Below, in pieces: positions 1-58,677 of a stretch of DNA of 64,000 nucleotides. The notes beneath the pieces are model-generated. The model was not told where the DNA came from. It was given only the letters and a program-made list of their open reading frames with translations, and did no database searches. A program made the translations under genes and the position numbers. Source of the DNA: Sphagnum compactum (Eukaryota); assembly GCA_965153455.1 (NCBI GenBank), contig OZ234493.1, positions 12,018,213-12,082,212 on the forward strand, given 5' to 3'. The number at the start of each line of letters is the position of its first letter. Position 1 is the stretch's first letter.

Positions 1-95
1 CTCTGTTTTACATTGCAAAGATGGCGCGAACTGAGTCTCATTTTTCACTAACAACAGAAATTAAACAAGCGATGGAAATCAAATGTAATGTCCAA

Positions 96-298
96 GTGCA
101 TTGCAACATCACATTTGCAAAAACATCCACTGGTTGGAATTTGGAACCTAAGTGCCTTGCATCGTCACATTTGCAACATCCACTGGTTGGAACCAAGTGC
201 CTTGCAATATCATATTTGCAACAACATCCAACCACCAGGCACCTTGCAACATCACATTTGCAACAATATCCAGTGACTGGAATGCAACAAACCTTGTG
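96..298. repeat. Degenerate minisatellite, ~42-50-bp unit, 4-5 copies
   Basis: The core ccttgcaacatcacatttgcaaca(a)catcca and variants recur near 100, 155, 200 and 243. This repeat explains the repetitive ORFs 21..341 and 38..331. Confidence 0.8.
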
Positions 299-1439
299 TA
301 TGATACTTATACATAGAAAACATGCACACATCTACATATAACTGTCATGGTTCTACTCACAAATCTACTTCCTTTGTCAAGAGCTCTGACTCAATTGACT
401 TTGGTACTCAAAATCCCAATAACCTGAGTTTCTTCTTCATTGGTGGCTGGATGGTAGCATGTCAACAACCACTGATTGCCCCACACACTCTTATCCTGCA
501 ATACAATCATGCAATCTGGAAGTATCCTGCAAACTAGTATCCAAGCAAAATGCATCTACAGACTCCAGATAGGTTGCCAGAGGAAACACCTTTGTACACA
601 GACGGGTGAGGGAATGAATTACCATTCGCAGGAGAGGACTCCAAAATCCAGAGGAGAGTTGTAAAACATGGACAAGGTGCCAAGGTTGAAACTATTTCAT
701 TTGAGGACTGGTAAATGGTCCAACAATTCTGAGGCCCACTTTACAGGCAAGGGGATTATCTCCCCATTCCGTTCAACCTGGAGTGCTAAGCACCACAATA
801 TGTAAACTATACTAAGCACATCTTGCATACTCTCTTCCTATCATGGAGAGAGATGCACATCCAGTAGGCTACATCCTGAATTTAAATCCCATGTATAGAA
901 TTGGATGGCTTTCTTTGATTTGCAAACATTCATGGAACTTTCATCAATGAAGCTATCCCAAGCTTTTGGAAGCTAATTTGAAGAGCAGCTGTTGAGGAAG
1001 CCGTGGGGGAGGTGGGGTGGAGAGGGGGGGGGCTATCATGTGCTTTAACTCTACTCCAAAGGCTCTGCACATCTTGTGAACTATGGGAAAACTACTTGCA
1101 ATGGGATCTATATAACATTACTAGAAATGTAAATGGGCAAACAAGAAAATTTATCAAAGGTTAACATAAAAGCTACAGACCAGCAGCCGGTCCCTATTTC
1201 TGACAACAAAAAAACGATGAAAAAAGAAGAGTGATTATACACAGATGAAGGCACTAACAGCAACTTATTATGTAGTTGCAATGGAATGAGGAAATGAAGT
1301 GTGGTCCCACAACAACTTTGGCTCACAACTGAACTTGGCATTTAGCACTGGTTCACATTGGGCAGGTGATTGTCTCAGAACTTGATTGCCATCAGAACAA
1401 GCAGCGGGCCACAAACCTTTGATTACTGGTACCATGACA

Positions 1440-4400
1440 CTATCGGAGCTGAAATTGGTTGCCAGTTTCAAATATAGCGGTTGTGAGGTTGTTGTGAAGT
1501 TCTTCATATGTGTCATAATCAGGGAGAATAAGTTCATTGAAACATGTGTGAGCCTGTCAGAAACAAAACCAATTTAATAAATACAGAGTTCATTGATAGG
1601 ACAAAAAAGTTGCTGTGCTGACATGATCTCTGGCTAATCTGTGTTTGTGACATGCTTGTGCCATATCTGTGAGATTGCAGATATATATCCAAAACAACAC
1701 TTTGGTAGCAGCACAAGGAATGCAGTCATAACCTTATGAGAGTCACTCACAAAGTGTCAGACCATCATGTTAATCCCAAATAGCAGTGATGAGCTGCCAT
1801 GACTACCCACTGACTGCATTGGATACCAATGGTGGGTGTGGGAGGGGAGAAGTATACGACAATCCACCCAAATTGCAACCAATTTTATATTATATAAAAT
1901 CTGAATCCTGAGTTTCTATTGCATTTCCAGAAGCAAGAGAGGACTCGATCATGATGTTGCCCAGCACTTAAGAGAAATAGCTAAATAGAAAATAGTGACT
2001 TCGTACAAGCTGCAATGAGCTTGTGAGGTAAAGCTTCATTTCATTTGAGCTTGTCCCTATGCAAGCAAGCACTTTAGCCTAAGGCATAGAGAAGCCTACA
2101 TAGAGAGAGGATACACTCAAATGGAAGGAGGAGTGCATGAGAATACTCAGTGAGGGATCCCCTTTGAGCATGCAACAGGAGTTAAGAAAGTACCTGTGGA
2201 AGCCTAGTAGAGTCTGAGACACGCACAATGTGGAAAGACCTTAAGCCTTCACTACCTCGCAACCCCTGTAAGCAAACACCACACCATTCAAGCCATTGCA
2301 AGGCAGAAGCTGACTGATATTACCAGCTAAACCTATCACATTTATGTTCCACACAGAGAGGCCCTTGTCTTGGTACTGGCATCCTCTGACATCAAATTCA
2401 GTAGAGGTCAAAAACCAGAATCCCAACATTGCAAAGTTTTTGAAAACATTATTTGGTGCAAGCTGAACATACTTTTCACGACAACCAACCATGTAAGGGT
2501 CAAGCTCATGGGTTCTCAGTCCCACTGGGTTAAGCTGCATCAGTTGGGAAGGAATCTTGGATTCATGCAGAAAAAGGACTAATGAGGAATACTCAGGATA
2601 ACATCATTTCAGTTTAGATAAATGCCCAAAATCTCAAGCACAGGAATTGTACAGAATGTGAGGGTACCTTAAAACCTTCAGGGAAAGGGACCTGTGTTCC
2701 AGGACACAAGCCAAACAGAATCATATGAGGAACTTGACATGATGCAATGCAGAAATTCACAATTGTGAAGTAAAATCATCTACAATGCATCTAGTGAACC
2801 CTGCAATTTTTTTAAGAGATTAGGTGTGCACAGCAAAGACAAAACATATTGTGTTAGCAGGTATGAAAGTGGAGGTTGAATGATTCTGGCTGCTGCATAA
2901 AGAAGCCAAACTACGTGGTTCTTGTAACCAGCCCATCATACCTTTGATGTGCCAGTCACAAACTGTAGCAGACGGGCTCTCATTTCTTGGTCCCAAGACT
3001 CTATCAACTGCAGCACAACTAAAAGCAGCTTGTCATTCAAGGCAAGTTTCTACCAGTTTTCTGAGTTGCTGCAGACTAAAACGAGAAGTCTCTGTATGCA
3101 GTACTGATGAGCTTGATGAGACCAATAAAAAAGTTTGATTTACTTCAGTACATGGAGTAGATCTTGAAACCACTAATAGATAATCCATTGGAACGATGAA
3201 AATCTTCAAACATAGCAGCTAACAGGAGAGAATAAGAGCACATAAACATGTACCTGCCAGAACCATCTGATCACATGACATTCTGATGTGTCACTATAGC
3301 CTGCTTTGTAAACAGTGTTTTTTCTCCTGCAAATGTCAAAAGTAGGAAGAAACTCTAAGTTTAGACTTTGAAAGAATCCCCAACTATGGGCAGTTCTTTG
3401 TCACTACATGTGCTCACTACATGTGTTGGGAATCCCTGCAGTCTTAATGAGCAAATTGTTGACCTTGGACACCAGAACACAAAGAACTAAACAACTACAA
3501 GCCTCCTCTACTGTACATCTGAGACAAAATGTAATCAGTTGGAAAATTCATATCACATCTAGATTGCATGGACCATTGCCACCCTACAATCCTTAATGAA
3601 CCCCAGTAATAGTTGGACAGGTCGCACATTTTAATAAATCAGACAACGCACCAATCAGCAGTGTCAATGGTTGGGAGGCCCCCAATCAGCCATTCAAGCT
3701 CATTCTCATCAAAGTGCTGCAAAGAAATAGCAAACGCATCTAGTATGAGACACAATCACACCCTTTTGTTATATGAACCTTAAGATAGTTCCAAGCTCAA
3801 ATCATGAAAGATTTTCTCACTTACATGGACAAAAGAGCACTGTCTTCTAACAGAACTTCAAGAACTCCTAATCAGACACCAGAAAGACTTATCTTCAAAA
3901 CCTCCTCAGAAAACACAAATTATGGCCTGTAAATGAGCACTATCTTCTAACAGAACTCCAAGAATTGCTCTAGTGACCAGCACCATATGGAGAAATGGTG
4001 TGTTGTGTTTACTTTGCTTAATTCAAGATTGAAGGGCACAAACCTGTAAGAGAATAGGATCAACAACACGGGCTAATCCAGTGCGCAGCGCTTGGAACTG
4101 GGGCTCCACACTCTCTATCCAAAAGAGACACACTTATTTCAGGACACCCCCACAACACTCCTTTCCATTCCAGTGGACATCAAAATAAGCAACATCTCCA
4201 TTTACGAAATGATAATACTCTTAGTTGCATGATATCTAATATCAGCAAATAACCACTCCAACAAAAAAAAACACAAAACTACAGGAAGATCTCCAGTGCT
4301 CAAAACAATGACTTCTACATAATCACAACCAATCTACTGCAACCACTCAAGGATCTTACAATAGAGAATGCAACACAAATGAACAAGTTACACAAAGGAA

Positions 4401-7400
4401 GTTTATATCCTGATGAGAAAGAGATGCACAACATAGATGTTGCACCTTTGAGGCGCCAACTGGCCAAGAGATCTACATATTCCCGTTTGTTCTGTTCAGT
4501 CACCACCATCTCCTTGCCCTTCTCCTTGAGCTGCCCCACCAGAGCAATCATGAATACTTTGTCAATTAGAAGCTCAAAACCTCCTGTTACACCAAGATCC
4601 TAATGACTAAAAAAAAATTTCCACTTTCCTTTTCTTCCATGGAACTGCCTTCTTAATCAATAGCATGTACACTACCCTATGGTCAATTCAAAGAGAAATC
4701 TCCTACATTGAGGAGTGCTAAGAATATGAACCAGTAAAAGGGTCCTGGGTGGTAATCAGACTTGTTGTGACCTTCATTGTGGAGGTTCTCCAGATGGAAA
4801 TACACTAATACAGTATTTCAAGACCAACAGTTTGCTAAGAGGGAGGGAGGAAGATGGTTGTAGTGACTACGAACCTCAACCTCCTCATATGCACCAAAGT
4901 TTTCTTTGTCCACGGAGAAGGTCAAACTCAAGTCCATTCCTTCTAGCTTGTTCTCCAACAGCTGCAAATGAATAGAATTCTTGAGAAAATTTCCCCACCA
5001 AATTAAGTTTCTCTTCCCCCCCCATTAGATACAAAAAGGATAATTATTCATTCAGTCCCAGTGATAGTCCAAAAAACCTCCATTTAACCCAATCCATAGA
5101 ACCTATTGCAGACTTCTAGGTAGGACTGCTACCTATCTAGACCAATCCGCATGGCACCCAAAGAAAGCACATCCTATTAAAATAGAGAGTATCAACTCTG
5201 GCAGGTACAGCACATCAAATAAGCATTAGAACCAGCTAACATAAAACAGCTGAGTTAACAATGCCTAAAGAAAAAGAAGTGATGGTACCCAGCAAAGGCT
5301 CTTGTAGAACTGCACATCGACTGAGGCCATATCATGGTAGGTGACAGGTTTGTCGAGTATGCGTTTATATACAAGTCTAGTAAAATGTGCATCGAGAAGA
5401 CATCCGTCCAAAAGAGCTTTTCCAACAATTGTCCCAATGAACTGGAAAAAGTCCAAGTGATCAGGATTTACACCCGAATTTTGTTTAATTTGGAATGTGT
5501 AGTCATCTGCTGCGCTGAGTGTGAAAAGAGCATATTGAGGGTTGAAAATCTCTTTGCTAAGAACACTGTACCAATCACGTGTGACTCCTCCATCATCCCT
5601 CCCAACCTCACCCACAAAGTGAACAGAGAGAGGGTTGCGCAAATCATCATCACTAATTGAAGCAAACTGCAATGAGCCAGCATCCCCAAGTTTTTAATCA
5701 GTATCAATCATCATCAAACCTTCCATCAGCCCACAGCAACCCCAAACCAGATTCTTCTCTTTTTTCAGATGCTACCTAAACCAATCCCAGGAAGCTGAAA
5801 TTCTGTGAAATTATGCAAATCAGTAGAATTGTTTTGCTCATCCTTCATGAGACTATTAATGGGCAAGTTCCTGAGTGTGTTGAGAATGGTTGAATTCTGC
5901 TGAATTATTTCTCCCTGTCAGGCAATGGTTCCATTCTGAAATGGACCTGCAAATAATGACTTTGAAAACTTTTACCCTCATGGGAAACTCCAGAACTTCA
6001 TCCAGCAATTCAATTGAAGAAGCCCAAAAATCTTAGGCCAACCTGTAGATAAGAGTCCTGGAAGACATGATCCCGCCGCACTACAATTTGTAGTAGCCTC
6101 CGCTCGCTTCTTGGTAGAGAGGGCTCTGCCTTTCCCCCATCACGCCCTTTTGACAGCTCCCTGAAATGGACAATTGTCAACATCAGTACAACAAGTCAGG
6201 CATCAATTCGTATTCTTCCAAACAGTTTCAAGCCAAAGATCATGAAATCAGCACTCTTTTATCTCAATCTTTTGGTGTGATTGAGTTGGCACCATAAAGG
6301 CATCCCCAATACTTCCAAAAACCTATGTGTAATTCAATCGAGGTTTCCTCATACTTGACCTCTGTCAACACAATAAGCATTCTATTCCATGCGGGATTTA
6401 TAGGACATTGTCCATATGGCCATCCCTGATCAAACATTCAACTACTAACCTGAATGATGTGCTAATCAGTGCCTGATTGCTAACAACCAGACCTCCAAAA
6501 ACTACAGCACAAAAATCCACTTTCAGCATAATAAGATTGAACATCTTGTTGCTATATACCTCCGAAGCCAATCACGCTTCATTCTAAAAATGGAGCCAAT
6601 GCTTAAGTGGTCTTTGAGATCCTCAATAGACTTGATGTTAGGAACTTCAATGCCTGCTGGAGAAACACGACCACCCCGGCTGCTATGCAAACTTTCAAGC
6701 CTCACGGGTGGGGCTGGCAGGATTCCAGGTGGAATTGACAAAATGTGGTCATTGATGGACAACTGTATTGCAGCTGCTAAATCTGCAGCTGCACCCAATA
6801 CCATACAAAACATCTTTTAGCTCCTGTAACAGAATTATGAAGAATAAGAATCAACCAAAGAATGTCAGATGCCTTGATACACATAACAGATGGGAGATAC
6901 ACAGGCACACTTACAGGCCTCTCTTTAAATGTCCTTTATATTTTTTAATCTGTGACCAGACTTCAACTTTCTCCAGCCTTCCATGGCAAACCAAATCCAA
7001 GCAATGTCTAAGGAATATCAAAACTCATCACAAGTTTCATGAACTGTGTTCAACTCTGACACCCAATTCACTGAACTGCAAAGTGAATTGTGATGAACAT
7101 ATATTGCACAAAATCATAATGCCAGTTTCTGTTCACATATCCAAGCAGTTTTGTGGTGGTTGGTCAACAATGACCACTATTTGCAGCTCCTTGCACCAGA
7201 TTGATTTTCAGGTTCACTTGACTGCTAGATCTTTCATCCTACAGCTATACACATCATCATTCAAACAAACAAGAGCAGCCAATCAAAGGAACAATTCACA
7301 AAAAACACTAGGAAATCTAATCAGAAGCTATGTCTACTTTCTTGGAGTACAACCATCCATCTGATGCACAACAAGGGGAAGCTTTTTTCACTTACTAGTG

Positions 7401-8313
7401 TGGTGAGCATGTGTGAAAGATACATACAGCAAGAACCCCAAAGTTTGCAGAGCTGTTCACAAGACAGAATCTACAGACCTGACCCCACAAAAGCCTCTCA
7501 AGGATTGTCACTATCTTCCAATCCTGAGATTATTGATATACAGTATGACCACACAAGACAGTGAACTGTTTCCATAGTGGTGCACTGCTCCCCACTTCCC
7601 AACATTGACAAAACTGGGGGCATCAGCAAACAAACACTGGTAACAGAAATCAAATTCCACTTCAATTGGAAGTTTTTCCGTGTCCTTCTATCAAGGTCAT
7701 TTGTGTGAGCAAGCACTTCACAGTGTAACCCACCGAAAGTGTGAAATTTAGCGCCCTAGTAAGGCTTTCCCACGGATGTCAACATCATTAGCGGATGCTG
7801 CTGCATGTGTATAAATGCAGCTGAAACTTGGACTGAGCACCCCTCAGTCCCAACATTCTTGATGGTCTCAGTTCTTCTACATAGAAGAAGAAAAGCGTGG
7901 CAAAATGGTTTGAGATACACTGACCCATCATGGAGTGGAAGAGGAAAACGAGACACAAGGAAGAGATGGGGTGAGAGAGAGAGAGCAGTCCCGGAGAGTT
8001 CAGATGAGTGATCATGCGGCAGGCTCAAAAGGGAAGGGGAAAAAGAAAGAAAACAAACAAAGACTCCCGTAGAGGCACAGGCGAACGAGGAAGGGTAAGG
8101 CAAACCTTCACGGCGCCGTTGCATTCGTCGTCTGTGCCAGGAGCATAGTGCCAACACAGACACCATCATAACTGTTGACATCCACGCCCATGCTAGCAGA
8201 AACACCGGCTGCAGCACATGTGCTAGAGAAGAAGGGGAGGAGGAGGAGGAGCTGCTGCTGCTGCTGCTTCCTGCTGCCAACAGTAGCCGGTGTTCTAACA
8301 AAACCCCCACCAT
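1440..8313 (-). CDS. HECT E3 ubiquitin ligase with N-terminal TM helix and UIM, ~529 aa, 13 coding exons
   Basis: Hand-built GT-AG exons with consistent phases: 8313-8106, 6788(or 6782)-6560, 6160-6043, 5666-5289, 4961-4875, 4530-4446, 4114-4044, 3716-3652, 3326-3254, 3007-2942, 2691-2668, 2265-2194, 1553-1440 (TAG). HECT motifs appear in order: LQIVVRRDHVFQDSY, VHFVGEVGRDDGGVTRDW, VTEQNKREYV, FDENELEWLIGG, VIRWFW, RARLLQFVTGTSKVP, RLPQAHTCFNELILPDY (catalytic Cys codon 1544-1542), and the -4 Phe in C-terminal FQLR*. The exon 1-2 join is less certain than the HECT exons. Confidence 0.9.
1727..1870 (+). repeat. Short interspersed repeat in HECT intron 12 (copy A)
   Basis: aaccttatgagagt..ctcacaaagtgtcagaccatca..caaatagcagtga..agctgccatgact.cccactg is shared with 39137-39285. 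Confidence 0.8.
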
Positions 8314-9924
8314 GGTTCCGTCTTCTCTACCAATAGACCCAACTTCCTAAGCTCTCAGTTGTCTCCACACACTCCTGCTGCTCCACAAAAACACAACCCT
8401 CCTGGAGCCGCAAAATGTCAACACCAGCCAAATTTCAAGTCCTTGAAACCACCACCAATTGCACAAAATCTTTCTTCCATATACTCTGAAGGCTGCTGCA
8501 CTTGCCTCCTCCGCATGATCAAGGAGACGAACTATTTCTCGCTTTCTCCTCCTCCTCCTCCTCTCCACTTTCCCCTCTTCCCTTCCCACAGGCTTTGTTC
8601 CTGCTCTCAGCGAAGGTTGCTCTTTCTCTTTTTTCTAGGTTTTCGGAGGGGCTAACGGTTCTTCCGCTTCTCCTGCACTGGATACTGGATGGAATGAGAC
8701 GATATCGGTATCTATACGAAGCTCTGAAGCCTGCGGAGACGGATACAACACCGGAGAGCGAAGATCCGAAAACCGTCGCTCCACAAATCTCTTGCATCCG
8801 CATGCATCTAGAGGAGCTTTGCCATTTCACTCCTCATCTTCTTCTTCTTCTTCCTCCTCCTCCTTCGACTTCGTGTGTTCTCCGCCCACGGCCGTCGTCC
8901 TTCGCGCACAGCAAGCAAGTTGAGGTGTCCGTAAATTCAGGACCTCAATGACGGCCTGAAATGACGGGCGATAACCCCCCCGTCCGCCCCCAAATGAGGA
9001 CTCCCTCAAATAGAATCTTTTTCGTCACCTGGATTATAGGGATCTTTTTACTTGCTTTTTACCTCTAGGAAAAAACAAAACCCCACCAAAAATAACATAA
9101 AATAAAATTTTAAAAAAAAATCTCAATACTTATTTTGGCCCTATGCATAGGGTACTCTTTCTTTTGGTTTTGTTTGTTGGGGGGGGGGGGGGAAGGGGGG
9201 GGGGGGGGGGTGCTGAATTTGTTTGTTGTGTAGTGCCATACCAAATTCATCATTTCAGGGTTAAATAATAACTTTATTTCAGAAAATCTCCAAAAAAAAA
9301 AATCTTTGTTTTCCTTCACAAAAAGAATTTCTTTTGAAAAAAGAAAATTTTTTTGGGGGGAAATTATTTAACATTTCTGAAAATAATAGAATTAAATTAA
9401 TTTCCAACCTACGAAAGGTTGTTATTGTATTTGCACTTTTAATTAACATGATTGAATTGGGCTATTCAAGGCATGTTTCCAAAATAAAAAATAAAAATCA
9501 ATTATTGATTTTAAAATAAAATCTTTTTGCAATTAAAAATATGATGGGGGACCATACCATTTGGGAAGAGAGAGAGAGACACGAATCAATTTGACCCACT
9601 TGTCAAAATCTTGTGGGGAAAAAGAAGAAAGACGAAGCTTGACATAAGTAAGTAAGCACATGAAAAGAACGAATAAAATGCATTTGTTCAACGTAGATTG
9701 ACGTTACCCTTAAGCTTCAAAAGAGGCGAGAGGCGACCTCCCCCTTCCCACTCGGCTTCCTCTCACACCAAAAAAAAAAAAAAAAAAAAAGTTGAAAATA
9801 TAATTTTGGCATCGAACTATTTGTTGTTGGGAGTTTTCACTTTACTCAAAGTGGCTCCAACTTTAGGGTTTATGGAGGTTGATAATTCTCTAACCGACAT
9901 AAAGAAAGAACAATGCAAGTAATT

Positions 9925-10054
9925 CACTAGTAGAAAAACCCCATTTTTCGACTTGTCTTAAGCGACTAAAAATGTCTTTTATGACTAAAAATAGTCGCAA
10001 AAGACACTTTTAGTCGCCTAAGACAAATAAAAAAATGAGGTTTTTCTACTAGTG
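9925..10054. mobile_element. 130-bp CACTA-type miniature inverted-repeat element
   Basis: Ends are CACTAGTAGAAAAACC ... GGTTTTTCTACTAGTG. The element is near-palindromic with internal gcgactaaaa/tagtcgc subterminal repeats. No clean 3-bp TSD (att vs taa). Confidence 0.75.
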
Positions 10055-37875: not shown

Positions 37876-40800
37876 TCAAGACTTCTCTTTGCCTTTCCTG
37901 CTGGGGGGCTTGTCATCTCTCATGTCCGGTAAGTTTATGCCCATGGCACCAAGCAGATTTGAGACAGGGCCCGGCAATCCTTGTTGGGACATATATGATT
38001 GCAAGAGGTTTGTCACCAGGTTTACATCAACATCAACTGGTGCAATGTCTTCAGAGTCACTGATTTCTCCAGTTTGCATAACAACCTGCATCCAACATAT
38101 CAGCCTTGTCAGATCCAAGTGTATGTGACAAAGGAACCTACAGCACAACATATGTCCTGCCCATGTTGCCCATGTCAATTAAAACATCATAGACAAGGTT
38201 GTCAATGAGTTTGAAACACTACCAAACAATCCCAAACTAAACTGAGTTCACCATGGGCAGAGGGAGTAAATACAGAAAGACAAAGTATAGAAGAGAGAAA
38301 AACCTCAGGTTGCTGCTCAATTGCATCTTCTGCAGTGATGAAACTCTTTGCTATACTTGTCTGATGGAGCTCATGTTCCAAAGCACTGGAATACGCACTG
38401 GAGAATCCATCATGACCATCCGCATAATTTGCCCCTGTTAGTTTTGATGTTGGTTCCTGCTCACTGATAGTGGCTTTTGATGCCACAACTTCACCAGACT
38501 GCATATCTTCATCCTCCTCTTCACTACCACTTTCACCTAGAAACAACAAGGCCAATAACAGACACATAGCAATTACTGGTAGATTTGTCTAGTCTTCTAA
38601 TGCCCAAACATATGATACCACCAGGTGCATCCTTAGAAAATTTCTTCGTTGAGTCAATATTTTAGCCTAGAAGTTGCAGCAAGAGAAGTCAGAAAATACT
38701 GTCTTTTGGAGCTTACCATAATCCATATCTGAGTCAGAGATGTCGAGGTCATAAGCTGAAGGATCAAGTGAAAACTCAGCAAACATGTCACTGGAACCCA
38801 GTGCACTCTCAAGCTCCTTTTTAAATCTTGACATGTTCACAGATACCTCATCATCTCCTACAGAACACATCATATTGCAATTCAAAGCTTTGTAAAGTCT
38901 GTCACCGAGGCTTCACACTAGAAGCCCTGTAACATCCCTGTATCGTCTCTTAATATAGGCCTCCAGATGAACAAACAGATTCAAAACTTCCAGAGATAAG
39001 GTGGGATCAAGGACCTTAGAGTTTTCAATTCAGAAGAGAAGAAGACCTGTGGAGACTGAAATATTTGAATATATCTATGAGATTGCAAAGAAAATCTCCA
39101 CAACAACACTTCGAAGGGAACACAACAATGAGTATGGTCACAACCTTATGAGAGTTGCTCACAAAGTGTCAGACCATCACCTTCATCACAAATAGCAGTG
39201 ACAAGCTGCCATGACTGCCCACTGGCTTCATCAGATCCAGATGGTGTATGTTGATAAGTATATACTAATCTGCCCAGAATTTTGGGCAAACTATCATAAA
39301 GGGTCTCCTTCACAAGTTCCTGTCACATCTCTGGAAGCAACAGGAAGACTCATTCATAATGCTGGCTACTGCAATAGTGAATTTCAGAGTTCAGCGACTG
39401 GCAGAACTATGATTCACAAGCACTAAGGTTAGCTCAAGGACTTTTAGAACCATCATCAAAGCTTTCTATGCACAAAAGGAGGATAAAATACATACCATCA
39501 GGCACCTCAGCACCCTCATAGCTTGAGGATTTTGTAACAAAGGCTTGCATGCTTTGTGCAAGTCCTGCCAAATCAAAAGAGGGCTCTTTCAGTCCACGCT
39601 TTGGACTGTCCTGATTGCTTGTCTCATGATCAGCAGCTGCATTTTTGTTGGATAGCTTGCGAGAAGCTCTTCTCATCTCATACGCTTCCATCTCCTTTTG
39701 TCTTTCAAGCAGTGCACTTGTCAGTTCTGTGTCCCCATCATATAGCCATGAATCGTCATCACTCTCCTGGAGAATTGCTGGGAAATCAGAGGATGTACAG
39801 GGAATGGACATGATGTTGTTCATGCATTTTATTGGGGCATGCATGGCTGAGCTGCAGAAAGAAAAAACACAGCAAGGTTACAAACAAATCCCCAGTGAGT
39901 ATGAAACACATATGAAAGCTAAAGGCAAAACAGAAATCAGACTTTTGGACAAAGACAGCAGCATCTCTCTTCTATCTTCTTGCCAAAAGAAGCAGAGCTG
40001 GTCACAGTTATGAAGTGTAGCAGCAGCAGCAGCAGCAGCGATGGTACAGTAACATACCTTACTCGAGCAAACAACATGGACTCCTGGTATCGCTCAACTG
40101 CAGCTTGTAATAGCTGCCGGTGCTCCTTAGAGCCCTCCATGAGACCCTTGAAGTAACCCCTATTTTGCAAACTCGATCGGAACACTTGCCACCCAGGATC
40201 ACTTTCTGGGACTCCATCCACTTTCACAGGAGTTGTGAGAGAAGCATCATCTGGTGTGTTTTGGTTTTGCATCCCATCTTGAGGCTCATATCCAGCACGC
40301 TCCCAGTACATCATCTCAAAGCCACAGGTGAGCTTCATTCCAAGCTCCGCTGCCTTGAACTGAGGAGAAGAGAGTGGTGGCATTGGGTAGTGTCTTGGTG
40401 CTTGAAACACTTGCTGCACGAGCTGCGCATACATCGCTCTTGAGAAAGATACCATCACCTCCACCATGTCAACAATGCCACAATCATCATCATCACCTCT
40501 ATTGCCATCACCACCTCCCTTGAAGGAGAGAAACTTTTTCATTCTAGCTACTGCTTTCACAGAGTCGATGTCTCGTCGATAGAAAGCTTCAACAGCAATA
40601 GCGATGAGCTGCGGCTCATGCTTCAAAATCTGAGCCACCTGCAATGGAACTATACACCGAGCTTTGTGGATTCCACTGTGAGCTCTCTCAGGATACTCTC
40701 TGATGCGGTGTGTGATGGCTTGCTGCACTCCATCTGAAGCTTTGGTGACAGCATCTCCTCTGGCAAGAACCTCTAGAGCCTTTTGTAAGGAGGAGGAGGA

Positions 40801-41385
40801 GGAATTCACAGGCATGCTGGAAGGGGGAAGAAAGTGAAGACATCCTTGTCTAATGAATACACGATTGCTACTTGTTTCTGGTTTGAGCCACCGAGGAAGA
40901 GAATATGCAGCCTCTATGAGAAGGAACTGGCCATCACCGTCCCTCACAGTGATAGAGATGTTAGGAAGGTTTCGTGAAAGTTCATAGAGAAGGAAGACAA
41001 GAAACCACTCATCATCTATGTTGTCACCATACTTGATCATGCCATGCAGATGCGGGAGAGACGAAGAAGACGAAGACAAAGAAGAAGTTGGGGTTGAGAC
41101 CACATCCAAGTTGAACGGCTGGTGCTGCCAGATGTAGTCCTTGATCAAGGGGCCCACGATGTCGAAACAAGCGGCCTTCAGTTCCTCAAGGAGGAAGAGG
41201 AGACGCTCTTCGTCCTTCACACCAAAACCATAAACCCTAGACTCCTCCTTGACCTTCGACTTCCGAGGAGGTTTGCACAAATCCGGGTCCAACAACGCTG
41301 TACCTGGCCGGGAGGAAGCAGTAGCGACGACGCAAGCATCCGGGAAGATTTCGTACTCGACTGCGTCAGTGCCCTCATCCGCCAT
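37876..41385 (-). CDS. ECD: Ecdysoneless / hSGT1-family protein, ~755 aa, 5 exons
   Basis: Exons 41385-40058, 39851-39496, 38857-38717, 38536-38304 and 38085-37876 have matching phases. Family motifs: YIWQHQPFNL, YGDNIDDEWFLVFLL, DGDGQFLLIEAA, WLKPETSSNRVFIRQG, FSRAMYAQL, ELGMKLTCGFEM, GYFKGLMEGSK, DDDSWL, VDVNLVTNLLQSYMSQQGLPGPVSNLL. Confidence 0.93.
39137..39285 (+). repeat. Short interspersed repeat in ECD intron 2 (copy B)
   Basis: Homologous to 1727-1870. Confidence 0.8.
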
Positions 41386-41602
41386 TCCTCTGCTCCTAGC
41401 TGCTGTCTCTGTCTCTGTCTCTTTTCCGCAATCTGCTTTCTGCTTCGAAACTACTGTTTCCTTCTCTTCACACCTCCGGCTCTTGCAACGGTCTCTGCGG
41501 AGAACATTAGAGTGTTTGGTGGTGATCAAGAGCTGCAAAAGCACTCGCTGCCTGAACGCAACCACAGTAGGGAGCAAGTTCAAAGAGAAACCTCGAAGCT
41601 CG

Positions 41603-41745
41603 AAACCCTAACCCTAGATTGCAGAAACCAAGTGAGGTAAGCTTCTTCTGCATGTAAGCTAGCTTCTGCACATCCTGTGTTTTTTCATATCTTGTTGGTT
41701 AGTGTGCAAGTCGGTTGGTTTAGGGTTGAGGGTTTAGGGTTGAGG
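41603..41745. promoter_or_regulatory. Telo-box cluster upstream of ECD
   Basis: AAACCCTAA at 41603-41611 and tttagggttgagggtttagggttgagg at ~41719-41745, 220-360 bp upstream of the ECD ATG. Confidence 0.5.
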
Positions 41746-53332: not shown

Positions 53333-56300
53333 TCACGCTCTACGTCTTTTCTTTGCCGGTCTAGTGTGGAATTCTTCTATGGCTTCTTGGGCATGTTCCA
53401 TGTCGGATTCATTCACCCAAGATGCCTCTATTGCATGGTAACCTTTCCACTTCACTAAGTATTCCCGCTCTCGTCCTCTAAGTTGCCTTGATTTGAGCAC
53501 GGCCTCAACCTCAAACTCTGGTTCATTATGAACCAAGTCCGGTGCAGGCCTTGAATGATGCTCTCTATTAGGCCTTGAGGTGTCGCGGGAGACCGGCTTC
53601 AAAAGGGAAACATGAAATGTGGGATGAACTCTAAGATTTTCCGGAAGTTCTAACTTATAAGTGTCGGAAAGTTTCTTTTCCAATACTTTGAATGGACCCG
53701 CATATGGGCCCATAAACTTATGACTTAACCCTTCGGGCAACCGGAAGTTCTTTATGTTCAACCACACCTCGTCTCCTTCTTGAAACTTCACCTCTCGTCG
53801 GGACTTGTCCGCAAAATCCTTGTACCTTTTGTGCGCCTTTTCCAAGTTGGCTTTTGCCAACTCCCATAAGCGCTTTCTTTCTTCATCAAGTTGTGTGACC
53901 ATTGGCACTTCCTCACTTGCATCAATCGAAGGTTGTCCTTGTGCGGCCCAAGTCATGGGCACAATTGGTGACTTGCCCGTCACCATTTGGAATGGGGTGG
54001 ATCCCGTTGCGGAGTGTACCGAGTTGTTGTAACAAAACTCGGCTAACTCCAAATGATCCACCCAATCTTGTTGATCCGCCGCCACATAATTCCTTAGGAA
54101 TTGTTGGATCACCAAGTTCACCCTCTCGGTTTGTCCATCGGTTTGGGGGCGGAATGAAATGCTCATTTTGAGTTCCGACCCCATTCGCTTCCACAAGGCC
54201 CTCCAAAACTTACTCGTGAACTTTGGATCCCGATCCGACACTATGTCCTTTGGAAGGCCATGATGCTTGAAAATGTGGGAGAAGAACAACCTCCCCGTCT
54301 CTTGAGCCGTGGCTTCATCCTTTGTGGGAATGAAGTGTGCCATTTTGCTAAATCGATCCACCACAACCATGATGGCATCGAACCCTTTTGAAGGGGGCAA
54401 ACTTACCATAAAGTCCATTGACACACTTTCCCACGGCCCTTCGGGAATTGGCAAAGGTTGCAACAAACCCGCTTGCTTTTTGTTGAGGGTCCGATTTTGT
54501 TGACAAGTTAAACAAGTCTTCACGTACTCCTCCGCATCATCCTTCAAGTTGGGCCAATAGTAGGACTTCTTTAGGAATGTTGTGGTGCGCTTTGCACCAC
54601 CATGGCCCGCAAGCGGTCCATCGTGACATTCCTTCAAAAGTGTGTCCCTAATTTTCCCTTCCGGCACATAGAGTCGGTTTTGCTTGTACCACAACAATCC
54701 ATTTTTCAAGCGGAAGTGGGACTTGGCTCCATTTTGGATGCTTTGCCTTGCCTCCTTGGCAAAAGCATCCCGGCGGTTTGCTAATCTAACTTCCTTTTGA
54801 AGTTTCGACTCTCCCACATACACCACTCTAAGTTGGTGTTTCCGGCTCAAAGCATCGGGGACTATGTTCTCCTTTCCCGGCTTGTGCCGGATGTCCACAT
54901 TGAACAAGGCCAATGTGTCTTGCCACCTTTGTTGTTTTGATGACAACTTGGGTTGAGTTGCGAAGTACTTCAAGGTCACATTGTCGGTCCACACCACCAC
55001 ATCTTTGGAGCCTATGTAATGGCCCCAAGTCTTGAGACAATGTATGACCGCCCACATTTCCTTCTCGTGAGTTGGTCACTTTCGCTCCGTCTCACTCAAC
55101 TTCTTGCTTTCAAAGGCCACCGGTCTTCCATCTTGCACTATGACGCCCCCAATTGCAAAGTCGGAGGCGTCGGAATGGATTTCAAACTCCTTGTCAAAGT
55201 CGGGCAACTTCAACACCGGCGCCTTCACCAAAATGCCCTTCAACGTTCCAAAGGCTTCGTCGCATGCTTCATCCCAATCATAAGTGACGGCGAACTTCTT
55301 CAAGAGGTTTGTCAAAGGGGCCGCTATTCTCGCAAAGTTCTTTATGAACTTGCGATAATAGGAGGCCAATCCTAAAAAGGATATCAAGGCGGGAACCGAG
55401 TTAGGCGGCTCCCAATCCAAAATCGCCTTGACCTTGTGATCATCCATCATCAAACCATCTTGAGTTATCCTATGCCCAAGGAAATCCACTTCCGTCACCC
55501 CAAATTCGCACTTCTCAAGCTTGGCATACAACTTGTTTTCCCTTAGCCTTTGGAACACCTTGCGAAGGTGCTCCGCATGCTCCTCCATGGAGCTACTATA
55601 AATCAAAATGTCGTCTATGTAGACGACCACAAAATCATCAAGCCATTCACGGAAAATGTCATTCATGAGGGTGCAAAATGTTGCGGGTGCATTGGTGAGC
55701 CCAAAGGGCATCACCAAGAACTCGTATGACCCATACCTTGTGCGACAAGCGGTCTTTTCTTCGTCCCCTTCCGCGATCCTTATTTGGTAATATCCCGAAC
55801 GTAGATCAATTCTACTAAAAACCTTGGCTCCCGAGAGACGATCAAATAGATCATCGATGCGAGGTAAAGGATAACGGTTTTTCACCGTTGCCTTATTGAG
55901 TGCTCTATAATCCACACACATCCTCAAAGTCCCATCCTTCTTGTGAACAAAAAGGAGGGGTGCCCCATATGGCGACTTGCTTGGTTTGATGTAACCTTTC
56001 GCGAGGAGTTCTTCAAGTTAAACCTTGAGTTCCTTCAACTCCTCGTGGCTCATTCTATATGGGGCCTTGGCGGGCGGTTCCACTCCCGGTATCACTTCGA
56101 TCGCATGATCAACTCGTCTTCTCGGGGGCAAATCTTCGGGCAACTCTTCGGGCATCACATCCGGGAACTCTTCCAAAACCTTCCTTATGCACTTGGCGGA
56201 AGTCACCAACTTGGTGGCTTCCTTAGGCTCATACTCATCCAACACCCGCATGACACACATCATGCCAAAGCCCCCCACTAGTTCTCTTTCCCAAGCTTTT

Positions 56301-57814
56301 CCTAACATAAAGTGGATGGTTGGACCAACCACACAAGGCAACTCATGTGCCTTAACTCGCACAATCCCACTTTTAGATGGGATTCTAACTAACCTATTGT
56401 GCCCTTCAATGAGCACATTATTTTGGGTAATGAATTCCATTCCCAAAACGCACTCCATTCCACCCAAGGTGGAAACTAACAAATCCACTTTTCCTCTCCA
56501 ATTTCCCAATTGGAGAGGCACTCCCTTTGCTTGTAGTGTGGTTGGATGGGGAACCCCATCCGCGAAATGCACCTCAATGGGTGCCTTGAGCTCCTCCAAG
56601 TGGAGCTCCATCCTTTCGGCGCTCTCCCGAGTTATGAAGTTGTGGGAGGCCCCTGTGTCCAAAAGACATAAGATTTCTCGTTTAGCAATCTTCCCTTTCA
56701 AGAATATAAGTCGATTGCATTCCGGTTGGGCTAAAGTGGCATTGAGAGCAAATACCTTAGAGCTCCCAACCCCCGTTTTGGATATGGGACAATCTTTGGA
56801 GTAATGCCCCACCTCGTTGCAATTGAAACATGCACCCTTGGGCTTTGCTCCAAAGTCTCCCTTGGTTTGGCACCCTTTGAAAGGAGCCCCCTTCTTCACG
56901 AAGCTACCCTTTGGTTTGAACCCCGGGCCTTGGAATTGTTTTGGCTTATCCTTGGTTGGGCTACCTTGCCCCCGGTTCCATTCCCCCTCATGCCTTGGCT
57001 TTTTGTGAAGGAACTTGTTGTCCTTCTTGAACCCGGATTTGTCGCTCCGCCCCACATCCGAGAAGTTCTCCACTTTCGTGATGGCCTCGGATAACGAGGC
57101 GGGCCAACTCTCCTCAAGCTTTCGCTTGGCCCAAGTCGGAAGTCCCATCACGAATTGGCACACACGATCCAACTCGTGCATGTGCCGGATCTCCAACATG
57201 AGTTCGGAATAGGCCCTCACATATTGCCTCAAATTTTCATTTGTGGCATTCACAAGGTCGCGGAGTTTGCACCTAGAAATGTAGTCGGAGTTTCTCGGAA
57301 TGAACTCCGCCTCAATGCGATCCTTGAAAAACTCCCACGTATAGCCATGGTTCTTGCCCTCCTCTTGTCTCACCGTCCGCCACCATGTGGCGGCATAGCC
57401 TTTCAAGTAGGATTGGGCAAGCTCCACGGCGGAATTCCGTCCAACCTTGGTGGCATGGATATAATCATCCATTTCCGCAAGCCAAGCATCCACCACCTTA
57501 CGGTCTCGGGCACCATCGAAATTCCCGGGCTTGGCCGGTTGAAACCTTTCACCTTTGGAGGCCCCCGTTTTGAGGGCCGCCACCAACTCACCAAAGTCGG
57601 GCCTATTCATCTTGAGGAGGACTTCAAGTTGCTCCGGGGTGAATAGGACCGAGCTTCGTTGTTCCTCCTCACTCTCGGGTTCAACCTCGGGCTCATCTTG
57701 GTCCTCCCGGAAGTTTAGTTCCTCCCCAATTGATTCCGGCGGGGCTACTAGGTCATCGACGGGCTCCTCGGACCTAGGCTCTGGGGCTAGCTTCTGGTTC
57801 TTCTTGGGTGCCAT
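53333..57814 (-). pseudogene. Single-frame gag-pol (Gag, CCHC, protease, RT, RNase H, integrase, chromodomain) with two in-frame stops
   Basis: ATG at 57814 (MAPKK). Motifs: CFNCNEVGHYSKDC, LLDTGAS, YIDD, SDASDF, integrase H-H-C-C with D,D,E, GPYAGPF, and chromodomain EFEVEAVL..EYLVKWKGY..ASW. ORFs 56018..57904, 55076..55927 and 53333..55057 share one frame, broken by TAA (56020-56018) and TGA (55078-55076). Confidence 0.95.
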
Positions 57815-57840
57815 CCCAAAAATGTCGTTGAGCTTCACCT

Positions 57841-57855
57841 TGAGCTCTGATACCA
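57841..57855 (-). other. Primer-binding site for initiator tRNA-Met
   Basis: The minus strand reads TGGTATCAGAGC, 2 nt inside the 5' LTR boundary. Confidence 0.92.
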
Positions 57856-57857
57856 CG

Positions 57858-58677
57858 TGACGCGCTCCTTGGTCCCGGGGTGAACCCACTTGAGGGTTCA
57901 CCAATGTGAAGTTGCGGAAAATGGGGACCGAAGGACACGCTCCCGACTTCCAACTCTAGAAAGGGGTAGAGGGTCGAGTTGGAAGCCCCGGGATTAGACT
58001 AGGAAGATGGACTAGTAGATCAAGCACGAATCTGCATCCAAAACCAACCACAAATGGGTTAGTTCACATTCGGGAACACCCTTGAGTGTTGGGACAAGCC
58101 ACGGGCACTTCGGACTACTTGACTCACCACGGCCCGGCTTTGGGGGAAGCCACCACCTTCCCCCTTATAGTTATCTCTGCAGCTCACCACGAAGGCTACA
58201 TCCAAATGGCACATTTTGTTGGGACTCCCGAAATGGAGTCCCGAAATTGTCCCGGCGGGACTCCCGGGACTTTGAACGGTCATAACTCCCGATTCTGAAG
58301 TCCGATCGCGACGAGGTCTGAACCAAAGTTGTAGCCCTCGTCGAGATCTTTTCAACGCCATGTCGCATTCCCTGAGGCGACGTCGGGAAAGGGTCGATTC
58401 CCGACTTTTAGTGGTCGGGAGTCAAACTGCCAGTTTGACTCCCGGCCCTTCTTTTGCCCATAACTTGGGCTGCAGATGTCCAAATGGTCAATGCGAGGCC
58501 ATTTTCGATATCTACGTTTCAAGACCTTTCCAATGACACCAAGAACACCCCAATGCGAGGTGTTTTGCCCCTTGCTGTCGAGCTCTGAACATTCGGGAGT
58601 CCCGGAGGACTCCAAACCTCCAACTTTTCCAAGTGTTGGGCTTCACCCCCACACTTGGACAAAGTGGGGTTGCGACA
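57858..58677 (-). repeat. 5' LTR
   Basis: 820-bp direct repeat of 51734-52553, adjacent to the PBS. Confidence 0.97.

Follow-up and report, generated by a model that had tools for sequence, protein, structure and literature searches.

HECT ubiquitin ligases are generally portrayed as soluble enzymes or as enzymes that associate with membranes peripherally, and the membrane-anchored E3 ligases that have been studied in plants are, to our knowledge, RING types. A locus in the moss Sphagnum compactum raises the question of whether a HECT domain can be part of an integral membrane protein. It lies in a 64,000-nucleotide stretch of contig OZ234493.1 (assembly GCA_965153455.1, forward-strand positions 12,018,213 to 12,082,212; hereafter the window, with position 1 as its first letter), in which a first-pass annotation had proposed a mini-HECT ligase bearing a transmembrane (TM) anchor and a UIM. 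Our analysis makes it likely that the encoded protein is a signal-anchored, single-pass, cytosol-facing HECT-type ubiquitin ligase, and that it belongs to a distinct, old, uncharacterised clade, here named TM-HECT. The gene itself is already in databases; its anchored-HECT architecture is conserved but unstudied, and our search of the literature found no transmembrane HECT of this kind described.

Gene structure and expression

The minus-strand gene at 8313..1440 is real and expressed. Its elements are the following.

1440..8313, minus strand: coding span, 13 exons, 529 amino acids, with 12/12 junctions in polyA RNA reads
8313-8311, minus strand: start ATG, preceded 11 codons upstream by a stop in the same frame
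8106..8313, minus strand: exon 1, encoding the N-terminal flank with a poly-Ser run, the TM helix and the Arg cluster, and also residue 69, which opens the UIM-like motif
6789..8105, minus strand: intron 1, 1317 nt, GT-AG, with joint 6788/8106 in X24 reads
6788-6560, minus strand: exon 2
6783..6784, minus strand: second AG, in frame, 6 nt beyond the intron-1 acceptor that is in use; splicing to it removes two Ala, as in the annotated orthologue P0211
6160-6043, minus strand: exon 3
5666-5289, minus strand: exon 4
4961-4875, minus strand: exon 5
4530-4446, minus strand: exon 6
4114-4044, minus strand: exon 7
3716-3652, minus strand: exon 8
3326-3254, minus strand: exon 9
3007-2942, minus strand: exon 10
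2691-2668, minus strand: exon 11
2265-2194, minus strand: exon 12
1553-1440, minus strand: exon 13
1440..1442, minus strand: stop codon TAG

The coding sequence of 1590 nt translates into 529 residues with a single terminal stop, and all 12 introns have GT-AG boundaries. The resulting protein is 100% identical to the public automatic annotation P0210; public records label the gene as hypothetical or "pub1-like". An Rfam search of window positions 1-10000 returned no match.

The splicing of exon 8313-8106 to the HECT exons, on which the proposed architecture depends, was borne out by RNA sequencing. Run X24 contains 52 polyA RNA reads across the 6788/8106 junction, with 28 distinct starts, and it recovered 12/12 junctions of the 529-residue model; the same junction is present in contigs from runs X1 and X6. 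Depth in X24 is 0 across the interior of intron 1 (6854-7881), and first mates map almost exclusively to the plus strand, which fits minus-strand RNA in a stranded library. Because reads were accepted at an identity of at least 90%, part of them come from a paralogue whose protein is 92.7% identical; at two exonic sites that distinguish this paralogue, 45/106 and 63/70 reads agree with the window. The second AG at 6783..6784 shows no use in this species among the junctions listed.

An intact HECT domain with a conserved fold

The catalytic region has the following elements.

1443..6160, minus strand: HECT domain, exons 3-13; the Pfam match spans residues 220-528, and alignments to solved structures begin at residues 154-162
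1542..1544, minus strand: codon of the catalytic Cys496, in the conserved C-lobe motif
1452..1454, minus strand: Phe526, position -4 from the C-terminus, invariant in 19 family sequences

The claim of an intact HECT domain with a catalytic Cys and a Phe at -4 was confirmed, these residues being Cys496 and Phe526. Pfam PF00632 is matched by 19/19 family members and by the window protein at 314.4 bits (cut-off 23.9), and the Pfam search found no other domain in the 529-residue protein. All 136 HECT proteins in an alignment share T495, C496 and N498. An AF2 model from this 136-row alignment (pLDDT 82.7, pTM 0.74) has a bilobal HECT fold with pLDDT above 90 over most of residues 165-520; it was used instead of a single-sequence fold (pLDDT 36.9), which was informative for the TM helix only. 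In Foldseek the top match is 6xz1_A, a conjugate of the HUWE1 HECT domain with ubiquitin (target TM-score 0.93, rmsd 2.5, E 2.5e-38), and look-alikes in the ESM Atlas are generic HECT clusters at 0.88. Compared by sequence with solved HECT domains, the protein scores 355 bits against Tom1, 349 against Rsp5, 346 against NEDD4, 345 against HUWE1 and 196 against E6AP.

The N-terminus carries a conserved predicted anchor

Upstream of the HECT domain, four features can be placed.

8137..8205, minus strand: predicted signal-anchor TM helix, approximately residues 37-59, ending with Cys57, which is invariant in the family (KD19, AF2, conservation)
8110..8136, minus strand: basic juxtamembrane cluster, residues 60-68, with Arg at 6 of the 9 positions (sequence, conservation)
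6748..6788, minus strand: UIM-like motif, residues 69-83, reaching back into the final 4 bases of exon 1 (acidic residues, Leu-x-x-Ala-x-x-x-Ser, acidic residue)
6560..6636, minus strand: start of a conserved helical pair, residues 121-146, the pair ending at residue 149 in exon 3 (AF2, conservation)

The poly-Ser tract, hydrophobic stretch and basic cluster attributed to exon 1 are all encoded where the first-pass annotation had put them. The Kyte-Doolittle maximum over 19 residues (KD19) is 2.0, at residues 37-55, and AF2 predicts one helix over residues 34-82, with pLDDT 91 over residues 41-60. A first comparison found a hydrophobic segment with a basic C-flank in 8/9 homologues (KD19 at least 1.66), the exception being the Calypogeia paralogue P0009, which is without the full hydrophobic segment. 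The proposed conservation of the segment in orthologues then held in 18/18 relatives with full N-termini, from Mesostigma and Chlorokybus to mosses, a liverwort and cryptophytes: each has the helix, 5-8 basic residues in the 15 residues that follow it, and a Cys within the last 4 residues of the helix. C57, R61 and R62 are invariant across 19 family sequences. In several mosses KD19 is just 0.96-1.7 when restricted to the 19 residues directly preceding the basic cluster. Of 294 full-HECT proteins, 28 combine a hydrophobic segment near the N-terminus with 4 or more basic residues after it, and all 28 belong to TM-HECT.

Net charge of the N-flank ranges from -3 to +3 in the 14 members for which it was computed, and the 5-8 Arg/Lys behind the helix, on the side expected to be cytosolic under the positive-inside rule, are present in 18/18 members. 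From these sequence features we infer a single-pass signal anchor with the HECT domain facing the cytosol. The invariant Cys, at the end of the helix predicted to face the cytosol, could be a site of S-acylation.

A UIM-like motif and a tether precede the HECT domain

The UIM consensus consists of an acidic run followed by hydrophobic-x-x-Ala-x-x-x-Ser-x-x-acidic, and residues 69-83 match this pattern. The first-pass claim that joining exons 1 and 2 creates a UIM thus stands at the level of the pattern, which the junction does form, but not at that of the profile: the Pfam UIM profiles PF02809 and PF23625 gave no match to the window protein, and across the family they hit 2/19 members at 10.4 and 7.2 bits, below the cut-off of 21. 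A strict UIM core lies at the same position after the Arg cluster in 10/20 members, 3 cryptophytes among them, against a background rate of 202 in 10,679 45-residue windows (1.9%); it is missing in the other 10, including Klebsormidium, Chlorokybus, Mesostigma and Spirogloea. AF2 confidence drops to 52 over residues 71-80.

Between this motif and the HECT domain, AF2 places a disordered linker of about 35 residues and then two conserved helices, at residues 121-126 and 133-149 (pLDDT 91-94), in which F137, K140 and L144 are invariant across 19 family sequences.

A probably separate family in early-diverging plants and cryptophytes

Members of the family were found in mosses, liverworts, streptophyte algae and cryptophyte algae; the orthologues sought in bryophytes and algae are thus present in mosses, a liverwort and streptophyte algae, and none of the best 120 matches comes from a vascular plant. 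Physcomitrium has two short paralogues, automatically named "pub1-like" at NCBI. All-against-all HMMER comparison gives 534 bits within the family and then a fall to 383 bits for everything else. A single branch separates the family from the remaining sequences; its support is 99 in a FastTree analysis of 277 rows and its SH-aLRT value 99 in an IQ-TREE analysis of 66 rows, both trees being unrooted. Branching order among its streptophytes roughly follows the species tree. Two proteins with high scores, P0023 and P0223, were rejected as relatives and excluded from the trees, as their scores were due to duplicated partial HECT segments of NEDD4-like type.

As far as these trees reach, the protein falls in no characterised UPL clade: HECT is its sole Pfam domain, and the family lies outside both the Tom1/HUWE1-like group (support 96-99) and the NEDD4-like group (support 99). 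The Tom1/HUWE1-like group has support of 96-98 in its own right. The trees contain no named plant UPL1/2, UPL5 or UPL8, so the separation applies to fungal, animal and protist relatives of Tom1/HUWE1 only; of 20 long Tom1/HUWE1-like proteins looked up, the named ones were fungal, oomycete, amoebozoan, microsporidian and shark.

Alternative readings of the locus

That exon 1 is a leader or part of another transcript, with the real protein beginning downstream and lacking a TM segment, is extremely improbable. Intron 1 is long at 1317 nt, low-depth contigs from X1, X3 and X6 read through it (these could be pre-mRNA or DNA), the X3 contigs lack the 6788/8106 junction and include one of low depth (5.2) with the joint 6788/6936 instead, and the leader would hold 7 upstream ATGs if it extended to 8900; against this stand the 52 junction reads from 28 starts in polyA RNA with zero intron depth, an identical exon 1-to-exon 2 reading in annotated proteins of other Sphagnum species, including S. 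magellanicum, S. fallax and S. jensenii, and of Physcomitrium, Ceratodon and Calypogeia, and an anchor in algal transcriptome ORFs, which are independent of introns. It is very unlikely that the hydrophobic N-terminus is something other than an anchor, whether a signal or transit peptide that is cleaved off, or a regulatory helix that docks on the HECT domain of a soluble ligase. At 19-23 residues the segment exceeds the length of a signal-peptide core, before it lies an uncharged stretch that reaches 38 residues at most, 5-8 Arg/Lys follow it in every member, and conservation concerns its physical character together with a Cys and a Trp at the boundary and no docking surface; AF2 gives a single straight helix and then a disordered tether, and a lumenal HECT domain would be without E1, E2 and ubiquitin. 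In favour of this reading are the moderate hydrophobicity of the moss segments and the fact that certain HECT ligases are autoinhibited by N-terminal segments. We also consider it unlikely that the protein is a shortened copy from the plant UPL1/2 (HUWE1/Tom1) lineage, equivalent to the duplicate in Marin's subfamily V, with an N-terminus that is an incidental remnant and nothing separate. The text of Marin (2013) describes an early streptophyte duplication in subfamily V, lost later in seed plants, and three subfamily V genes in Physcomitrella, which fit one long UPL plus two short paralogues; the moss copies were probably counted there, and that text carries no mention of a TM segment or UIM. 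Tom1 and HUWE1 are moreover the best solved relatives by sequence, and UPL1/2 and UPL8 bear a UIM according to PMC6562426. Yet the family lies outside the Tom1/HUWE1-like group in both trees, its cryptophyte members imply that it predates the streptophyte duplication, an anchor in 18/18 N-termini would be unexpected of an incidental remnant, and the assignment of individual sequences within Marin's scheme is our own.

A further reading accepts the anchored ligase and differs on its membrane, in that the anchor would direct the protein to the plastid or mitochondrial outer membrane instead of the ER or the secretory pathway, which would make it the HECT counterpart of organelle-surface RING ligases. 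We regard this as possible though somewhat doubtful. The rule used for distinguishing signal-anchor targets reportedly originates with Lee in 2011. According to PMC4010795, more than 89% of chloroplast and mitochondrial proteins of this type combine a Wimley-White value below 0.4 with a C-flank of at least 3 basic residues, and more than 85% of ER signal-anchored proteins lie above 0.4. On the Wimley-White scale, 14/18 family TM segments fall below 0.4, and the flank has 5-8 basic residues in 18/18; moderate hydrophobicity with a strong basic flank would also fit an outer-membrane signal anchor. Among the best 120 matches, to which the taxon range is confined, the family occurs only in plastid-bearing lineages, namely streptophytes and cryptophytes. 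However, the values lie near the threshold (0.14-0.46) and shift with window length, and the scale variant and TM limits may differ from those of the original rule. ER proteins such as P450s likewise carry a basic flank after an N-terminal helix.

Proposed mechanism and significance

For the signal-anchored ligase that we favour, we infer membrane insertion, orientation, catalytic activity and ubiquitin binding by the motif. The short N-terminal flank would lie outside, in the lumen, the intermembrane space or the exterior; the helix of 19-23 residues would cross the membrane; and the Arg-rich flank would fix the orientation, so that everything C-terminal of it would face the cytosol. The predicted cytosolic order is a juxtamembrane helix with the UIM-like motif, the disordered tether of about 35 residues, the two helices and the bilobal HECT domain. 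The HECT domain would accept ubiquitin from an E2 on Cys496 and transfer it to lysine residues of proteins that are embedded in its own membrane or lie at it, and the short tether would keep the ligase from reaching beyond this surface. The UIM-like helix may also engage ubiquitin, for chain extension where a substrate already carries it, or for self-regulation where it is on the ligase itself.

A conserved integral-membrane mini-HECT would work through a thioester intermediate and set the chain type itself, and so would extend the ubiquitination of membrane proteins in early-diverging plants by a different chemistry. Should the absence from vascular plants be confirmed, it would point to a component of the ubiquitin system of ancestral land plants that has since disappeared. 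As a more tentative proposal, and one rather unlikely to hold in full, TM-HECT would be an ancient separate HECT class in the plastid or mitochondrial outer membrane that ubiquitinates surface proteins such as import receptors and division or fusion factors, with the juxtamembrane UIM extending chains on marked substrates; this HECT counterpart of SP1/CHLORAD or MUL1 would have persisted in cryptophytes, streptophyte algae and bryophytes but disappeared as vascular plants arose. The small protein suits assays of localisation, topology, activity and ubiquitin binding, and Physcomitrium offers two paralogues and efficient gene targeting.

Comparison with known systems

Marin also defines a subfamily IV of short HECT proteins without extra domains, absent from angiosperms and likened to E6AP, HECTD2 and small HERCs. 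The moss protein is similarly short, has HECT as its sole Pfam domain and, judging from the best 120 matches for TM-HECT, belongs to a family absent from angiosperms. We nevertheless set this membership aside on the low similarity to E6AP; 196 bits against E6AP, compared with 355 against Tom1, make the subfamily V count the more likely home.

Closest by both sequence and fold among solved HECT domains is the HUWE1/Tom1/UPL1-UPL2-UPL8 type, with about 50% identity over the domain. Members of that type run to 3000-4600 residues and combine armadillo-like solenoids with DUF908/DUF913, UBA and DUF4414/UBM but have no TM segment, whereas the moss protein has 529 residues, an N-terminal anchor, only HECT in Pfam (which found no DUF908/DUF913, UBA or DUF4414) and a clade of its own outside the Tom1/HUWE1-like group. 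NEDD4, Rsp5 and Pub1 come nearly as close (349 bits for Rsp5, 346 for NEDD4) and act at membranes, as is predicted for the moss protein; NEDD4 ligases, however, bind membranes peripherally through C2 and substrates through WW domains, neither of which Pfam found here. In Plasmodium falciparum, PfUT is a predicted integral-membrane HECT ligase localised to the ER/Golgi; according to PMC4022464 it is a protein of 3893 residues that has an armadillo-like fold and for which four TM segments are predicted. Its anchor architecture is not that of the 529-residue, predicted single-pass moss protein. The ATL family, chloroplast SP1 and mitochondrial MUL1 and MARCH5 are membrane-anchored RING ligases. 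They follow the same logic, a TM anchor holding a cytosol-facing E3 domain at one membrane, but they are unrelated in sequence and are RING adaptors without a catalytic Cys intermediate, whereas a HECT domain forms a thioester with ubiquitin.

A spliced minus-strand gene encodes a short HECT protein

Reading window positions 1-9500 on the minus strand fixed 13 exons of the HECT gene by coordinates.

Exons of the HECT gene
8313-8106, minus strand, exon 1
6788-6560, minus strand, exon 2
6160-6043, minus strand, exon 3
5666-5289, minus strand, exon 4
4961-4875, minus strand, exon 5
4530-4446, minus strand, exon 6
4114-4044, minus strand, exon 7
3716-3652, minus strand, exon 8
3326-3254, minus strand, exon 9
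3007-2942, minus strand, exon 10
2691-2668, minus strand, exon 11
2265-2194, minus strand, exon 12
1553-1440, minus strand, exon 13

All 12 introns have GT-AG borders, and the 1590-nt coding sequence, whose only stop is terminal, translates into 529 residues; an in-frame stop lies 11 codons upstream of the start ATG at 8313. Exon 1 contributes poly-Ser, a hydrophobic stretch, and six Arg within nine residues, and its junction with exon 2 creates a string resembling a ubiquitin-interacting motif (UIM). The catalytic Cys is residue 496, with Phe at -4 from the C terminus. The description of this gene in the first-pass annotation proved accurate to the base. A publicly annotated protein, P0210 (unnamed product, Sphagnum compactum), matches our model letter for letter.

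We mapped RNA to positions 1200-8900, using raw reads from a polyA run (X24) and three contig sets (X1, X3, and X6). Reads were accepted at ≥90% identity, so paralogue reads contribute to the counts; at two differing exonic sites, the window base was present in 45 of 106 and 63 of 70 X24 reads. All 12 junctions occur in X24, with 37-131 reads each. The earlier claim that exon 8313-8106 is spliced to the HECT exons was borne out by the 6788/8106 junction, which appears in 52 X24 reads with 28 different starts and in contigs of X1 (depth 255) and X6 (depth 177). X24 depth is zero across 6854-7881, within intron 1, and its first mates lie almost only on the plus strand, which fits minus-strand RNA in a stranded library. 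Among the X3 contigs mapped to this interval, none carries the 6788/8106 junction, and one of low depth (5.2) instead joins 6788 to 6936. Contigs of low depth that traverse intron 1 occur in X1, X3, and X6; these could be pre-mRNA or DNA in the metatranscriptomes.

Several further features of the transcript emerged. Tandem acceptor AGs, 6 nt apart, lie at 6783-6790 at the start of exon 2; use of the downstream one would drop two Ala directly before the UIM-like core, precisely the way in which the annotated orthologue P0211 differs from P0210. An annotated Physcomitrium patens isoform (X1; P0178) has a 33-residue insertion exactly at the intron 1 site. The insertion separates the Arg cluster from the UIM-like motif and indicates an intron position common to Sphagnum and Physcomitrium, where there may be an alternative exon or retained segment. 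RNA depth persists over 8314-8900, to the end of the mapped stretch, giving a 5' leader of at least ~590 nt; its seven upstream ATGs make upstream open reading frames possible. A few hundred bases further upstream, at 9187-9213 on the minus strand, is a long C run broken by TT. At the exon 9/10 junction, a variant (3008/3256) with one extra letter between the sides is carried by 30 X24 reads and by contigs of X1, X3, and X6, and 68 of 156 reads have a 3-letter insertion at position 1438, just past the stop codon; both most likely derive from a 92.7%-identical paralogue or an allele. RNA piles up within the last intron at 1714-1970 (depth 236 in X24, versus 6-120 in exon bins; 4867 in X1). Many of these reads fit for only 40-50 bases (about 1721-1767 and 1779-1819) before turning into unlike sequence, and contigs of X1 and X6 contain a joint at 1767/2025. 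The region, for which Rfam gave no match, resembles a short repeat element or a piece of transcripts originating elsewhere.

Relatives occur in bryophytes, streptophyte algae, and cryptophytes

A word-seeded search with exon 4 retained 21 proteins from 219 candidates, and with the whole orthologue P0001 as query 1521 of the 7999 proteins scored reached E ≤ 1e-60, the best 120 of which were examined by name. In an exhaustive HMMER search, which returned 16,835 HECT proteins, family representatives scored 617 and 534 bits before scores fell to 383 bits. P0023 (473 bits) was rejected as a member; it contains duplicated partial NEDD4-like HECT segments.

Sphagnum has two paralogues of this family, which we term TM-HECT: the window type (P0210 and P0211) and another (P0001 and P0204) with 92.7% protein identity to it. 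Further members were found in the mosses Physcomitrium patens (two paralogues, auto-named "pub1-like") and Ceratodon, in the liverwort Calypogeia (two copies), and in the streptophyte algae Klebsormidium, Chlorokybus, Mesostigma, and Spirogloea, along with two algal transcripts. Cryptophyte relatives are more distant (361-379 bits), and one cluster holds Guillardia and Hanusia proteins. The best 120 of the 1521 word-seeded matches (proteins of 286-912 residues) include none from vascular plants, hornworts, Marchantia, or chlorophytes, which is an absence from the search and not proof of loss.

The N terminus retains the character of a predicted membrane anchor

The Kyte-Doolittle maximum of the window protein over 19 residues is 2.0, at residues 37-55 (next best, 1.49). 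Eight of nine homologues have a maximum of 1.66-2.82 within the first ~60 residues, directly followed by an Arg cluster; in P0009, a Calypogeia paralogue, the hydrophobic segment is reduced to a stub. We screened the 294 proteins with a full-length HECT match (from 333) for an N-terminal segment of hydrophobicity ≥1.6 followed by at least four basic residues. All 28 positives belong to the TM-HECT family, and no NEDD4-like or Tom1-like protein among the 294 has the pattern. Across 19 aligned members, Cys57, Arg61, and Arg62 are the sole invariant positions before residue 137, and each of the 18 full N termini has a Cys within the last four helix residues and 5-8 Arg/Lys in the 15 residues after the helix. 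The hydrophobic segment and basic flank originally proposed as a transmembrane (TM) anchor are thus conserved in relatives, and the N terminus keeps its physical character rather than its sequence, as a membrane anchor would be expected to do. From the charge asymmetry, the N terminus is predicted to face outward and the HECT domain the cytosol, the only site with E1, E2, and ubiquitin. The boundary Cys may be S-acylated.

As for the proposed UIM, residues 69-83 fit the consensus, but Pfam UIM profiles matched only 2 of 19 members, both below threshold. In 10 of 20 members (six bryophyte sequences, one algal transcript, and three cryptophytes), a strict core (an acidic residue within four positions, then Leu/Ile/Val/Met-x-x-Ala-x-x-x-Ser) occurs at the same distance past the Arg cluster; it is unmatched in the other 10, two of which come close, one with Phe at the hydrophobic position and one with Ala for Ser. 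Background frequency was 1.9% (202 of 10,679 45-residue windows), or 0.8-4.3% in shuffles of the local segment. That the core recurs in two clades whose HECT domains share just 40-43% identity speaks for retention of a functional motif; given the sub-threshold matches and the 10 members lacking the core, we call it UIM-like.

In unrooted trees, the HECT domain groups apart from the sampled NEDD4-like and Tom1/HUWE1-like ligases

HECT is the single Pfam domain of the window protein (residues 220-528; 314 bits against a cut-off of 23.9); the remaining matches, at residues 19-81, are weak, sub-threshold, and to families of TM or juxtamembrane segments. Among solved structures, sequence search scored Tom1 at 355 bits, Rsp5 at 349, NEDD4 at 346, HUWE1 at 345, and E6AP at 196. 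Fold prediction (AF2) with a 136-row alignment reached pLDDT 82.7 and pTM 0.74 (single sequence, pLDDT 36.9). The model has a continuous helix at 34-82 (pLDDT 91 over 41-60, falling to 72 and 52), disorder at 83-116, confident helices at 121-126 and 133-149, and a bilobal HECT domain. Foldseek matched it best to the HUWE1 HECT-ubiquitin conjugate 6xz1_A (E 2.5e-38, target TM-score 0.93, rmsd 2.5).

A FastTree of 277 HECT domains, built after removal of 18 rows (16 near-duplicates and two internally duplicated proteins) and excluding Spirogloea P0022, which failed the full-length filter, gave three groups, unrooted: the family (27 rows, support 99), NEDD4-like (100 rows, 100), and Tom1/HUWE1-like (150 rows, 98). 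A quick IQ-TREE search under a site-mixture model, with 66 evenly picked rows (20 family, 20 NEDD4-like, and 26 Tom1-like), gave SH-aLRT values, also unrooted, of 99 for the family, 84 for streptophytes, 100 for cryptophytes, 99 for NEDD4-like, and 96 for Tom1-like. The branching order of streptophyte members roughly follows the species tree. Of 20 long Tom1/HUWE1-like proteins looked up, all those with a named organism came from fungi, oomycetes, amoebozoans, microsporidia, or a shark. In these trees TM-HECT forms a group separate from NEDD4-like proteins and from fungal, animal, and protist Tom1/HUWE1 relatives, the set compared containing no named plant UPL1/2, UPL5, or UPL8.

Neighboring features

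39940-41607, minus strand, large exon of an SGT1/Ecdysoneless-family protein (PF07093, 396 bits)
53333-57955, minus strand, Ty3/gypsy-type LTR retrotransposon of the chromodomain kind

An open frame at 39434-39877 may be the next exon of the SGT1/Ecdysoneless gene. The retrotransposon encodes gag, zinc knuckle, aspartic protease, reverse transcriptase, RNase H, integrase, and chromodomain in three abutting open frames, all in one frame and split by two in-frame stops; GC rises to 0.48-0.52 across it.

Interpretation and relation to known HECT proteins

The finding is real, and the membrane-anchored HECT ligase of the first-pass annotation stands, upheld by splicing, the conserved anchor, and the separate clade, with its UIM and choice of membrane still tentative. 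The window protein is probably a signal-anchored, cytosol-facing, catalytically competent HECT E3. Its short tether would confine the ligase to substrates within or at the membrane that holds it, and the juxtamembrane UIM-like helix may bind ubiquitin.

An annotation artefact is highly improbable. A soluble protein whose hydrophobic N terminus is regulatory or cleaved is improbable; that the gene is a mere shortened UPL1/2 copy is slightly easier to credit and still unlikely. An anchor in the plastid or mitochondrial outer membrane, a special case of the signal-anchored ligase, is a more serious if tentative proposal. According to a review of outer-envelope targeting (PMC4010795), signal anchors with Wimley-White hydrophobicity <0.4 and a basic C-flank go to these membranes and more hydrophobic ones to the ER. 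By our Wimley-White estimate, 14 of the 18 family helices score under 0.4, and the basic flank is present in every one, but the values lie close to the cut-off.

Marin 2013 (PMC3712016) defines six plant HECT subfamilies. Subfamily IV (short, without extra domains, absent from angiosperms, and nearest to E6AP, HECTD2, and small HERCs) is a poor fit here, since E6AP scores only 196 bits. Subfamily V (UPL1/2/8, HUWE1-like) is reported to have undergone a very early streptophyte duplication, after which seed plants lost one copy, and to have three genes in Physcomitrella, which would fit one long UPL plus the two short paralogues of TM-HECT. Databases already list the TM-HECT gene as an uncharacterised protein, and Marin 2013 probably counted its lineage. 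That paper uses neither the word "transmembrane" nor "UIM", none of ~8.4 million full texts contains wording like "transmembrane HECT" or "membrane-anchored HECT", and further literature searching found nothing on TM-HECT genes. Within the literature searched, we found no published account of the architecture, of how it is conserved in cryptophytes and from Mesostigma to mosses, or of the separate position of the HECT domain. Brassica and tomato surveys report predicted TM helices just sporadically, in single angiosperm HECTs. Integral-membrane HECTs are not unheard of in eukaryotes: Plasmodium PfUT is an ER/Golgi HECT with four predicted TM segments, though at 3893 residues it contrasts with the 529-residue, single-pass protein predicted here.
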